A DNA stretch of 64,000 nucleotides from Candidatus Krumholzibacteriia bacterium (GTDB lineage: Bacteria > Krumholzibacteriota > Krumholzibacteriia > Krumholzibacteriales > Krumholzibacteriaceae), in contig CAWIIQ010000001.1 in NCBI GenBank assembly GCA_963836185.1, positions 1,312,001-1,376,000 of the forward strand. Direction: 5' to 3'. Positions 57,076 to 60,674 of this stretch are shown one piece after another. Position numbers and translations under genes: made by a program. The notes beneath the pieces are model-generated. The model worked only from the letters and a program-made list of their open reading frames with translations. It did no database searches and was not told the origin of the DNA. Within the stretch, counting starts at the first letter, position 1. Each line of letters starts with the position of its first letter.

Positions 57076-57109
57076 AAAAAGAAGGCCGGGGATCACTCCC
57101 CGGCCTTTT
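57076..57109. terminator. Bidirectional intrinsic terminator
   Basis: AAAAAG-AAGGCCGGGGA-tcac-TCCCCGGCCTT-TT. Confidence 0.78.
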
Positions 57110-57137: not shown

Positions 57138-60100
57138 CTACCTCAGAAGAACCATCTTCTTCATGTTCTCATAGTTGTCGCCGGCGTTGATCTTGTAGAA
57201 GTAAACACCGGAAGCAACATTGGCCCCGAGATTGTTAGCGCCATCCCAGGTAAGTTCATGAGAACCAGCATCCATGACACCATTCTGCAGAGTCTTGACC
57301 AGCTGTCCAGCCACGTTGTAGATCTTCAGGCTTACGTGACCCTTGGAGGGCAGCGCAAACTGGATCCGCGTCGACGGGTTGAACGGGTTGGGGAAGTTCT
57401 GCGCGAGGCTGTAGGCCTTCGGGAGCTCGGTGTCGGTGTAATCGCCCGACGTCGCGTTCTCGAAGAACTCATAGGTTTTCCCGAGGAACGTGTTCCTTGC
57501 GGGAGCGCCTGCTACAGCGTCTCTGATCTGCATGAAGCTGTGTCCGACCCAGACAGTCCTGAGCGGGTAACCGGCACTGTTCACCTGTGAAGGTGTGTGG
57601 ATACCGGCGTAGTACGGCGCGGCTGCATAGTCAGGATACTGCAGTGCATAAGCGCCGGGGCCCGTTGTCTGAAGAACGTCGAAGTCGTTGATGATCGGGC
57701 AGCCGCCGAAGGCATAGTAGGTCATGCCTGCGTACGGTCCACCCGCAACACCGGTGATCAGAGGAGTTATCGTACCGCCGGCCGTACGGCCACCGGTAAG
57801 CTCGTAATAACTCGAGTTCTCAAGCGCGACACCACAGGTCGTGGAAACGAGCTCGAGAGCGATCGCCTGATCCGAATGGGAAAGGTCATAAGCGATCTGG
57901 TCGCCCATTACAAGGAGTCCGACCTTGTGGTCCGACTGATTCAGCCAATCTACGAGAAGCTGAGCGTCGTTCGACTTGTCGGAATTCTCCAGGGTTCCCT
58001 CAGAGATCGTATACGAGTTGAGATCTCCGGAATCAAAGATGACCTTCTCATAGGCCTGGCAGAAGATCGACTGAGGACCAGCTGCCGAAACGTATGCGCC
58101 TACACCGTTGCTGACACCGGAGGCCGGTGCGTTGGTGTCGTACCTGTCGGGCATAGCGTCAACCGAAGCTGAAACGGACGCGAATGCCGGATCATAGTAC
58201 GTCTGCACTGTTCCCACGAATGTGCCGCGACCATGGAAATCGTCGCAGTACAGGACGCCGGGAACTGTCCTCAGGGTAGGCAGGCAGGTAAACTCATACC
58301 TGTTTCCATCGACTTCCTCGGCCGAAGCCGGAAGAGTCGACGAATAGCCCAGGAGGTCATACGCTTTGAAGTAGTACTCGACCATGTAACCGCGCGTGAA
58401 GAGCGAGTCATTGAGGTCGATCGCGTAGGTCTCGGGTGTGATGGCACCGCTCGCGTTCTGAGCAGGCTCACACAGCAACACGGTCCAGTCACCGTCATCA
58501 CTGATGTAACGTCCATCCGAACCCTCGAGTATCATACCTGCGATGTCAGGCTTTCCGTCGGGGCCGAGGAAATGAACGTTGCAGTGGAAGTAGACTCTCT
58601 CTTCACCGGTCGCCAGGGTATCCAGGCCACCGGCAAGAGGGGCCGCGCACTTGACTGCAGCCGAGTCGCCCGGATCGATACGATCGGGCTCCGCGTCGGG
58701 GGCGATATCGACCGCCGCGTCGGCGCGACAGATCTCTTCCATAGGATCTACGCTGAACTCGAGTTCCTGGGGGAAGGTGTCCTGGAAAAGCTCCAGGCCA
58801 CGGAAACTCCAGGACGGACCTACAGTCGCGTAGCGGTAGAGACGTACATTGTCGAGCCACGGTGAAGGTGTATGGGCAGCACAGTCGTTGCCGCCTTCCC
58901 ACCAGACATCGCACATGTCAGTGACACCAACGGTCAGCTGTACAGGCTCAGAACCGACGAGGTCAGAGATGTCGAATCCGTTCTGGATGTAATCCTTGTC
59001 GGCGCCGTAGTAGACGTAGTTACGATCTCTCCACTGCCCCGGGCAGTTAGTAGCTTCATCTATGCTTCTAACCGACCAGGTGTAGTATACGAGGTTCTCC
59101 GACGGAAGGTCACGGTAGGTGACGAATCTCATGACGGCACCGCCGAGCGTGGCAAGGTCGCCAGCGTCGATGGGCATATCCTGATTTACGTCACAAGCCG
59201 ATGAATACCTTCTCATGTCGATGATAGGCGATATGACCGACTCGTCCTGACAGGGGGCGGAGATCCCGCCGGGGCCCGTGCAGAACGGAGTGTCGAACAT
59301 ACCGGGATAATCGGAACTGGGATAGGATGAACCGTTGAAGAAGATCAACTGAGCGCCGAAGTTGTCGGCACAGGGATCTTTGTCAACAAGGTTGTTCCTG
59401 AGGTCGGCGTAGGCGCCGAAAGCGTCTTCGACCGCACAGTTCCAGATACCAAGCTCGCCCTTGCTTCCAACGGCATAGCCTTCGAAATCCTCGTAATCGA
59501 GAAGTCCGGTGGCATCGGTGACCGAGATCTCATCGATGATGCAGGCACCATCGGTGTCCCAGAGACCGTCCTGGTCGGACCAGGCACCGTCAGCGGTAAA
59601 GTGGTAACGAAGCTTGGTGGCAGCCTGGGTAAGGAGAAGCTGATACGATGCGTCGAGTGTGTCAACGCCATCGAATACATCGATCTCGACCCAGTTCTCG
59701 TCACCAGCGTCGTACTCTACGTACGTGAAGTCAAAATCAGGCTCTGAATCGATGAGAGCCTTGAATGACCACGTAAGGATGCCAGTAAAGGGAATGACAT
59801 CCGTGTAGCACAACTGGTTCCAGCCGTTGCCGTAACCAGGTGCATTGATCCATGAGCAAAGGTAGAAATCGGTGCCCCCACGGGTACCGCACCACAGTGA
59901 CTTGGATCCTTCGATGGGAGCGAGACGCCCGAAGGCACCGCCGCCGAGCCCAGCGAAATCGTCAACGTGGAAAAACGTATCTACCTGAGCAGTTTTGTCC
60001 AGACTCGTCCAGCCCTGCCATGACATCGGCTCGAAGTCGTACCAGATTATACAGAAGGTATCAACTGCGGCCGAAGCCATCAGTGTCTGAGCACCCTGGT

Positions 60101-60239
60101 CGATGAGAGCAGGGTTTTCGTCATCCGTAACGGCTTTCATTACCTGAAGGCCGCTTCTGTCGATATCGCGCGCCGACACGGATCCGACGAACAGGGCAAG
60201 GAAACACAAGCCCAGTAAAATAACCACAGGGGTTTTCAT
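57138..60239 (-). CDS. Large (~1030 aa) acidic secreted protein with FlgD-Ig-type C-terminal domain
   Basis: Signal peptide; beta-sandwich-like domains; 'LAQNFPNPFNP..IYNVAGQLV..WDG..ASGVYF..KKMVLLR'; ATG 60239 is 9 nt from the AGGAG SD (alternative start 60245). Confidence 0.88.
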   Translation of the reverse strand: MKTPVVILLGLCFLALFVGSVSARDIDRSGLQVMKAVTDDENPALIDQGAQTLMASAAVDTFCIIWYDFEPMSWQGWTSLDKTAQVDTFFHVDDFAGLGGGAFGRLAPIEGSKSLWCGTRGGTDFYLCSWINAPGYGNGWNQLCYTDVIPFTGILTWSFKALIDSEPDFDFTYVEYDAGDENWVEIDVFDGVDTLDASYQLLLTQAATKLRYHFTADGAWSDQDGLWDTDGACIIDEISVTDATGLLDYEDFEGYAVGSKGELGIWNCAVEDAFGAYADLRNNLVDKDPCADNFGAQLIFFNGSSYPSSDYPGMFDTPFCTGPGGISAPCQDESVISPIIDMRRYSSACDVNQDMPIDAGDLATLGGAVMRFVTYRDLPSENLVYYTWSVRSIDEATNCPGQWRDRNYVYYGADKDYIQNGFDISDLVGSEPVQLTVGVTDMCDVWWEGGNDCAAHTPSPWLDNVRLYRYATVGPSWSFRGLELFQDTFPQELEFSVDPMEEICRADAAVDIAPDAEPDRIDPGDSAAVKCAAPLAGGLDTLATGEERVYFHCNVHFLGPDGKPDIAGMILEGSDGRYISDDGDWTVLLCEPAQNASGAITPETYAIDLNDSLFTRGYMVEYYFKAYDLLGYSSTLPASAEEVDGNRYEFTCLPTLRTVPGVLYCDDFHGRGTFVGTVQTYYDPAFASVSASVDAMPDRYDTNAPASGVSNGVGAYVSAAGPQSIFCQAYEKVIFDSGDLNSYTISEGTLENSDKSNDAQLLVDWLNQSDHKVGLLVMGDQIAYDLSHSDQAIALELVSTTCGVALENSSYYELTGGRTAGGTITPLITGVAGGPYAGMTYYAFGGCPIINDFDVLQTTGPGAYALQYPDYAAAPYYAGIHTPSQVNSAGYPLRTVWVGHSFMQIRDAVAGAPARNTFLGKTYEFFENATSGDYTDTELPKAYSLAQNFPNPFNPSTRIQFALPSKGHVSLKIYNVAGQLVKTLQNGVMDAGSHELTWDGANNLGANVASGVYFYKINAGDNYENMKKMVLLR

Positions 60240-60248
60240 AATCATTTT

Positions 60249-60395
60249 CTCCTAAATAGTGGTCGGCTATTCAGAGTTACAGGAAGACAATAACAGCGGA
60301 TTTTTACCCTCCCTACAGCGGTCGGCTGGACAGAGTTACACTCAGGCCCGGTTCAGAGCATAAGCTTCCTCCAGATTCTGGTCGGCGGGTTAACA
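60249..60395 (-). repeat. Three ~60-nt-period leader repeats, TGT(T)AAC..GCCGACC..GGAG
   Basis: Units at 60368-60395, 60308-60340 and 60249-60281; GGTCGGC on the + strand at 60261, 60320 and 60380. Confidence 0.8.
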
Positions 60396-60598
60396 CGCGA
60401 TAGGGCACGTCAAATTCGGTGGGTACTTGTATACTAGCACAAAACGGCCATGATTCCAATCACTAAATCCATGGAAACGCGCGGAATGCCGCACGGAAAT
60501 CATCATTAATATTACTTGCCGGCAAGGTCTCTCAAAGAAGGCACAAAAAAGACTTGAAAAGGGTAGGTGGTATAATATATTCACTTTACTCATGGGGA

Positions 60599-60674
60599 GC
60601 TGGTGTAGCTCAGCTGGTAGAGCAACGCACTCGTAATGCGTAGGTCATCGGTTCAACTCCGATCACCAGCTCCA
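60599..60674 (+). tRNA. tRNA-Thr (CGT)
   Basis: 76-nt cloverleaf GCTGGTG/CACCAGC; anticodon arm ACGCA-CTCGTAA-TGCGT; GGTTCAA; encoded CCA. Confidence 0.96.

Follow-up and report, generated by a model that had tools for sequence, protein, structure and literature searches.

The leader of a predicted secreted-protein gene of Candidatus Krumholzibacteriia carries three tandem copies of a short core, each coupled to a Shine-Dalgarno (SD) sequence, and this three-unit element is real and under selection. The units are read here, tentatively and at a little short of an even chance, as a tandem series of sites at which a small RNA would act in trans, with the third site lying at the true ribosome-binding site of the gene; the candidate partner is a structured RNA located behind a peptidase M49 gene, hereafter the M49-linked RNA. 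This reading draws on what was observed of the repeat, the conservation of its cores, the occurrence of the core in a second type of leader (type B), the conservation of the RNA and its covarying helix, its exact complement to the core, and the spacing of its anti-SD sequence. The comparative evidence is mixed: counting against the reading are the lack of a compensatory pair change, two further predicted targets that proved not to be conserved, and distant relatives that keep the core but yielded no partner RNA. In what follows, the window is the whole stretch of DNA that was analysed (64,000 nucleotides), G000 is its host genome, which is 92.5% complete, and G004 is a genome of the same genus and the other carrier of the three-unit (type A) leader. 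The coordinates of the features are collected in Table 1.

Table 1. Position and nature of the features described in the text (unprefixed positions are those of the window).
Feature	Position	Strand	Description
Predicted sigma70-type promoter	60431..60459	-	-35 at 60459-60454, 17-nt spacer, extended -10 at 60436-60431
Unit 1	60368..60386	-	GCCGACCA core, 6 nt, GGAGG (upstream SD)
Mini-ORF Met-Leu-stop	60353..60361	-	6 nt past the unit-1 SD
Unit 2	60308..60340	-	TGTAACTC prefix, GCCGACCG core, GGAGG as an SD without start codon
Pyrimidine-rich stretch	60277..60288	-	Predicted able to pair with the upstream SDs, mainly SD 1
Unit 3	60249..60281	-	Predicted hairpin loop holding the GCCGACCA core, followed by the real SD of the gene
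Secreted-protein gene (predicted)	57138..60239	-	~1030 aa; likely start at 60239
Terminator-like GC-rich hairpin and T-run	57076..57106	-	Past the gene end
tRNA-Thr(CGT)	60599..60671	+	Divergent; locus marker
Type B leader	G000:C1:1257975-1258240	+	~260-320 nt structured 5' leader; also L002, L014, L015, L140 and others
M49-linked structured RNA	G000:C3:144645-144732	+	~88 nt, behind the peptidase M49 gene; loci L377-L406

The three-unit leader and its gene

On the minus strand, the cores, of the form GCCGACCR followed by GGAG, occupy positions 60386-60368, 60326-60308 and 60267-60249, and GGAG starts 7, 7 and 8 nt past CCGACC in units 1, 2 and 3, respectively. The period of 60 and then 59 nt and the GGAG at the end of every unit are present as a preliminary description had given them, and its remark that the spacers are dissimilar is borne out, since whole 60-nt units match at just 23-30 of 60 bases. 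In unit 3 the GGAG (60252-60249) is the real SD of the gene, and the core spans about -28 to -21 relative to the start codon. Nowhere else in the 3.5-Mb genome do three copies of GCCGACCR lie within 200 nt; among its 2818 leaders, three copies are present in one and a single copy in 25.

Besides the host, only G004 was found to carry the type A leader among 201 genomes of the phylum (BLAST E 2e-16; next best 0.019), and a search for the triple-core pattern over 52 genomes had G000 and G004 as its only real hits, the other matches looking, by eye, like coding sequence or chance. These are the only two full type A leaders known; DNA contigs of two further studies, which differ from it at 3 and 7 positions, cover it in part. 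Between G000 and G004 the cores are identical at 34 of 36 positions and the remaining leader at 87 of 156 (Fisher p 3e-6, for a core set taken from the repeat itself and including the real SD). Core and SD are identical in units 1 and 2, as are 12 of 12 bases of the pyrimidine-rich stretch; in unit 3 of G004 the core begins ATCGACC, a weakened form, and the stem is gone. A relic of a tandem duplication of a ~60-nt ribosome-binding region, functionless today, would explain the regular period and the carriage of the element by just two of 201 genomes, and two genomes (G001 and G009) in which the tRNA-Thr(CGT) gene adjoins family genes do have other leaders at the locus. Such a relic is nevertheless very unlikely, given that the cores have stayed near-identical across the copies and two species despite diverged spacers and that the core is common to type B. 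The mini-ORF Met-Leu-stop also survives in G004, through two synonymous changes (an outcome that 2 in 36 double transitions, or 6 in 324 double changes, would give by chance), which in this post hoc test is only suggestive of conservation beyond chance.

The units are likely to be transcribed. The G004 ortholog retains both hexamers of the predicted sigma70-type promoter, the distance between them and the TG extension, and if this promoter is used the transcript would start near 60424-60426. It scores 8/12, under the threshold of the scanner, whose own candidate (60535-60508) is likewise upstream of the repeats, so that the units would lie within the transcript either way. Four RNA runs from one study gave no contig over 60224-60574, a result that cannot show absence, as contigs do not, and that comes from organisms which may lack the locus, so it is given no weight. 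Searched against Rfam, the window returned two tRNAs only, and the leader no family at the gathering threshold (best E 2.7), in agreement with the earlier statement that no known riboswitch was recognised.

The preliminary description proposed a cis-regulatory RNA module made of hairpins that bury the SDs. Conserved cores, a promoter-like site upstream and the lack of an Rfam match speak for the module, but not for its hairpin structure. The expected closing pairs of units 1, 2 and 3 are 0.0, 5.4 and 8.8 in the host and 0.0, 3.6 and 0.8 in G004; stems are thus possible in units 2 and 3 of the host, and unit 1, which had been noted to fold poorly, is without a local hairpin in both genomes, but shuffled sequences fold as well (whole host leader, z +0.67; single host units, z -0.27 to -0.62), and unit 3 of G004 folds worse than its shuffles (z +1.54). 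The CAG/CTG versus TAG/CTA difference, taken at first for a compensatory change, compares two copies within one genome and is lost in the ortholog, and a conserved, covarying hairpin architecture is not supported, unit 3 having 0.8 pairs in G004 against 8.8 in the host, a comparison of two sequences only. Because the hairpins are not conserved, this structural model is weak; because the cores are conserved while the hairpins are not, the selected feature is a sequence, the core plus the SD. The same results bear on a self-contained switch, akin to a riboswitch or a thermometer, whose hairpins would themselves bury the SDs: units 2 and 3 can fold in the host, the SDs are predicted to be mostly paired in the host and G004 alike, and a conserved CUUCCU stretch can pair with them. 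With folding no better than that of shuffles, the unit-3 stem lost in G004 and Rfam without a match, little credence is left for it.

The downstream product had been called a giant secreted protein; secretion is indeed predicted, the N-terminus being hydrophobic and the protein ending in a sorting domain of FlgD_ig/T9SS type, but at ~1030 aa the protein is large rather than giant. A structure model built from 109 sequences (pLDDT 84) consists of beta-sandwich domains and one alpha/beta domain, and comparison with the PDB gave no structure that matches the whole protein (TMq at most 0.19); a single-sequence fold (pLDDT 31) was of no use. The protein may act at the surface or as an adhesin. Its named relatives belong to Candidatus Krumholzibacteriota, and the G004 ortholog begins MKTPV, with equal 9-nt SD spacing. 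Many homologues come from contigs of about 3.3-3.5 kb, which is as long as leader and gene together and is what assembly from a one-gene transcript would be expected to give, and such one-gene-long contigs suggest that genes of the surface-protein family are transcribed singly. Two more conserved long leader types, C and D, are present on other paralog clusters of the family (G000:C3 near 70500-70900, minus strand; L091-L095, L136; L068, L120, L124, L135).

The type B leader and the M49-linked RNA

A second copy of the gene in the host is 99.0% identical over 3086 bases and has different flanks. The two copies (window 57138-60239 and G000:C1:1258236-1261339) share 99% identity between about codon 8 and the stop codon and have unrelated leaders; near-identity of this kind suggests recent duplication or gene conversion. 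The second copy also carries two single-base insertions, possibly assembly errors. Its leader, of type B, was recognised by rule in 36 of 166 distinct family leaders, with five more by eye, and a pattern search located it in 31 of 42 genomes from the family; G004, too, has both types. Type B has a conserved, covarying secondary structure that ends in an SD-burying hairpin; its 16 two-sided cells were reached in 0 of 500 shuffles, and its five pairs with two-sided changes in 86 of 500. GCCGACC, present in 25 of 32 type B leaders and unpaired between two helices in the consensus fold, is the best-kept unpaired stretch of the leader (chance of one copy per 185 nt, 0.014), and an invariant CGACA stands in a predicted loop. 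An upstream SD, itself in a hairpin loop, lies 93-146 nt before the start and in 25 of 32 leaders has no start codon at 3-10 nt. Rfam searches of type B leaders gave no match, and the leader is a candidate for a new RNA family in its own right. In the four RNA runs, gene-body contigs run on into the type B start.

The preliminary description had suggested an antisense RNA as one possible reader of the repeats, and a concrete candidate for it was found. When intergenic GGTCGGC sites were ranked by summed duplex energy with the units and the type B site, four of the 47 rows were the antisense of the three units or of the type B site and were set aside; among the 43 others, the first (G000:C3:144674) belongs to the M49-linked RNA. 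The stretch that this RNA occupies is free of ORFs and is bounded on one side by the stop codon of a peptidase M49 gene with a signal peptide and on the other by two hairpins that resemble terminators. In each of the 44 loci read across the order the RNA follows the M49 gene, and it is retained where the downstream gene differs or converges. A model, whose training set was drawn from the same genomes as were searched, detects a single copy in 36 of 40 genomes within the order and in one of 110 others. Two-sided changes are seen at 8 of 10 pairs of the closing helix (0 of 500 shuffles), and in 34 of 37 cases the plus strand gives the more stable fold. A CCUCC-like anti-SD, then 5-13 nt (about 8), then GGUCGGC make up a collinear complement of one unit. 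GGUCGGC (the seed) is the most conserved stretch of the RNA and is predicted in or near the apical loop, with its first four bases mostly unpaired in only 19 of 37 RNAs; the anti-SD is predicted to be paired inside the RNA. No Rfam family matched. An identity as SRP or 6S RNA was rejected, both being found elsewhere in the genome above the cut-off, and so was pairing between the 5' and 3' ends of the M49 mRNA, as M49 leaders are without a conserved site. A CCCCTG-like stretch that could pair with the G-run of the RNA is present downstream of it in 11 of 44 loci and upstream in 9 of 44.

These loci also bear on an explanation at the DNA level, by which the units, lying downstream of the main promoter, serve as a direct-repeat operator or as alternative promoters. 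Direct repeats immediately past a promoter-like site, and the same double-stranded motif at the 3' locus of the M49 gene, would be in its favour. However, the motif is embedded in covarying RNA structure both in type B and at the M49 locus, the copies are each coupled to an SD on one strand, and the gap from the TGTAAC prefix to the core is 10 nt, shorter than the 16-17 nt of ECF promoters. It is the least probable of the explanations weighed here.

Predicted pairing between the RNA and the leaders

The distance from anti-SD to seed in the M49-linked RNA agrees with the 7-8 nt spacer of the units, and the seed can pair over 7-8 bp with each of the three host units. Net of opening costs, the predicted binding of the seed to units 1, 2 and 3 amounts to -8.9, -9.0 and -9.6 kcal/mol in the host and to -8.5, -7.8 and -4.1 kcal/mol in G004; once the helix of the RNA has to be opened, the full two-part duplex is no better than the seed alone (net -5.1 to +8.6). 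Both RNA and type B leader are present in 30 genomes, and in all 25 of these outside genus g2 the seed and the type B site pair at 7 of 7 positions. Changes in g19 are one-sided, with pairing kept by G-U pairs. In genus g2, seed and site are both changed in 5 of 5 genomes with both parts (the changed forms are present in 13 of 13 RNAs and 12 of 12 leaders), and this represents one shared event of joint loss, leaving 4 of 7 pairs, not restored pairing. The leader of G011, from another genus, has a change like that of g2. No compensatory change, that is, no two-sided rescue between seed and site, was seen in the 30 genomes, and the anti-SD shows no covariation with the type B upstream SD (p 0.65).

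A two-part match alone is not rare, since by raw duplex energy with the M49-linked RNA unit 3 comes only 92nd among 2817 start regions and the seed is accompanied by CCTCC at 21 of 1079 genomic GGTCGGC sites. CCGAC(C/A) stands directly ahead of an SD in 8 distinct leaders of 114 other family leaders, as against 12 of 1182 genes in G000, a count of related rows that includes the window and reduces to about five independent lineages (p about 0.004, assuming 100 lineages). The model of the M49-linked RNA, applied to the leader region, gave just E 0.88, at the antisense of unit 3. The order-wide pattern of core, SD and ATG gave 23 matches against 12 in controls, with no new family leader among them. 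Apart from this, a distant family member of 1684 aa (M10 peptidase with Ig-like domains; G000:C1:195694, plus strand, L375) has one core-spacer-GGAGG unit at its ribosome-binding site, and ranks 2 of 2817 for predicted pairing with the M49-linked RNA.

Wider sets of targets were considered and rejected. In the host, the site is over-represented ahead of signal-peptide genes (7 of 344 compared with 2 of 838; p 0.003; motif ranked 5 of 608), but the first such gene that was followed has it in 7 of 7 g1 genomes and in at most 1 of 38 others (with coding overlap), and the second in 2 of 6 g1 genomes and 1-2 of 41 others. A general regulon of FlgD-domain or secreted genes fell as well, there being no positional excess genome-wide, and the motif that the preliminary description would have sought near FlgD-domain genes showed no enrichment near start codons across the genome. 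Pairing of the core with the pre-16S trailer was also discarded, since the host has GGUCGG 16 nt past the anti-SD but its congener G006 and others do not. In the same trailer (the 16S-23S spacer on G000:C1), and in many genomes of the phylum, an SD-like stretch is able to fold back onto the anti-SD. A conserved stand-alone element of ~230 nt occurs in other families of the phylum (L254-L268); it has 13 nt that are perfectly complementary to the 16S 3' end, a GTG-started ORF of ~14 codons and a terminator-like end; four loci gave no Rfam match at E 0.1, and the element is possibly a small-peptide gene or a new RNA.

The cores might instead be sites for an RNA-binding protein that reads YCGAC, three per leader in type A and two or three in types B and C, with the complement in the M49-linked RNA being coincidental or secondary. 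Such a protein would account for the second, invariant CGACA in the predicted loop of type B, for the one to four YCGAC-like sites of type C leaders, and for unit 3 of G004, which turns to TCGACC, the loop form of type B. It would also suit the distant families f6 and f9, whose type B leaders keep GCCGACC and in which the partner RNA was not found in six genomes (75-95% complete) by M49 neighbourhood (three orthologs), pattern or model; nor was it found in five genomes of the order that lack the M49 contig. Against this, there is no candidate protein, CsrA and Hfq not having been found in the 92.5%-complete host genome, and the exact complement in the most conserved stretch of the RNA and the joint g2 change are left unexplained. 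A protein reader is considered unlikely.

Proposed mechanism, known systems and significance

If the units are target sites, the M49-linked RNA would be released as a small RNA, bind the leader and repress the gene. Its seed would nucleate on an exposed core; at unit 3 the seed duplex would crowd the ribosome-binding site, and the anti-SD of the RNA may then take the SD. The outcome would be reduced translation or stability of the surface-protein mRNA, exposed to RNase E/G or RNase Y, both of which are present in the host genome. Units 1 and 2 could sharpen the response through cooperativity or recruit one of these nucleases, or alternatively could soak up the M49-linked RNA and so couple the type A copy to its type B paralog. 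The sign of regulation is judged from the position of the site, and opening of the unit-3 stem could activate instead. Taken further, the pair could belong to an order-wide circuit that dispenses with Hfq, in which a small RNA cut from a secreted-peptidase mRNA uses one seed on two unlike leaders, remodelling type B and both blocking type A and employing it as a sponge, with the cell picking between two expression modes of one protein; the odds are clearly against this larger scheme.

The upstream SDs might also park 30S subunits, in the manner of a STAB-SD or through the mini-ORF, stabilising the mRNA or feeding the real start, and this could coexist with the small-RNA model. The conserved mini-ORF and the upstream SD without start codon that type B keeps in 25 of 32 leaders would fit, and precedents are given in reports on STAB-SD (PMC12970973) and on ribosome protection (PMC5737220). 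Parking does not explain a GCCGACCR core at a set distance from every SD, and a search of the host for RNase J, which is the nuclease that is blocked in the hbs case, gave nothing above the cut-off, although RNase E/G and RNase Y are present. As a full account of the units it is distinctly unlikely.

The small-RNA reading can be set beside systems known from other bacteria. In Campylobacter jejuni, CJnc230/FlmE is a small RNA of ~98 nt located downstream of a protein gene in all species having it, with a conserved anti-SD motif that suggests trans action on mRNAs (PMC11187230). The M49-linked RNA likewise sits behind a protein gene and carries an anti-SD; unlike in CJnc230/FlmE, whose anti-SD is single-stranded between two stem-loops, that anti-SD is predicted to be paired, the best-kept part is a second, GC-rich seed, and the predicted target has its site thrice (PMC11187230). 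Listeria LhrC pairs through C-rich anti-SD motifs, independently of Hfq, with the ribosome-binding site or a far-upstream site in the leaders of surface-protein mRNAs, and its several sites are thought to amplify the response; the motif is there repeated in the small RNA, whereas here the mRNA leader carries the repeat (PMC8079631). The STAB-SD of Bacillus thuringiensis cry3Aa (PMC12970973) resembles unit 2 and type B in being a leader SD without a start codon, but each SD described here has a core at a fixed upstream distance, and RNase J was not found in the host. Target leaders of CsrA/RsmA (PMC13443453) similarly hold several GGA-containing sites, the last at the SD; in these GGA lies in hairpin loops, whereas here the predicted loop is CCGACC and GGA falls in the stem, and csrA was not found. 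No sequence kinship with CJnc230/FlmE is expected, the M49-linked RNA matches no Rfam family, and by sequence the system would belong to none of CJnc230/FlmE, LhrC and STAB-SD. Among the matches listed in the literature on Krumholzibacteriota, none treats regulatory RNA by title or abstract opening, and no title describes a GCCGACC leader or small RNA, although supplementary motif catalogues could hold these RNAs.

If the small-RNA reading is true, a small RNA and its target would have been predicted from sequence alone in a phylum for which no regulatory RNA work was found, together with two RNA families absent from Rfam, the M49-linked RNA and the type B leader. The design would be unusual, with a target site tiled three times in one leader and each copy tied to an SD, and it would give a hint of the way in which FCB-type bacteria that lack Hfq and CsrA might regulate a family of large surface proteins.
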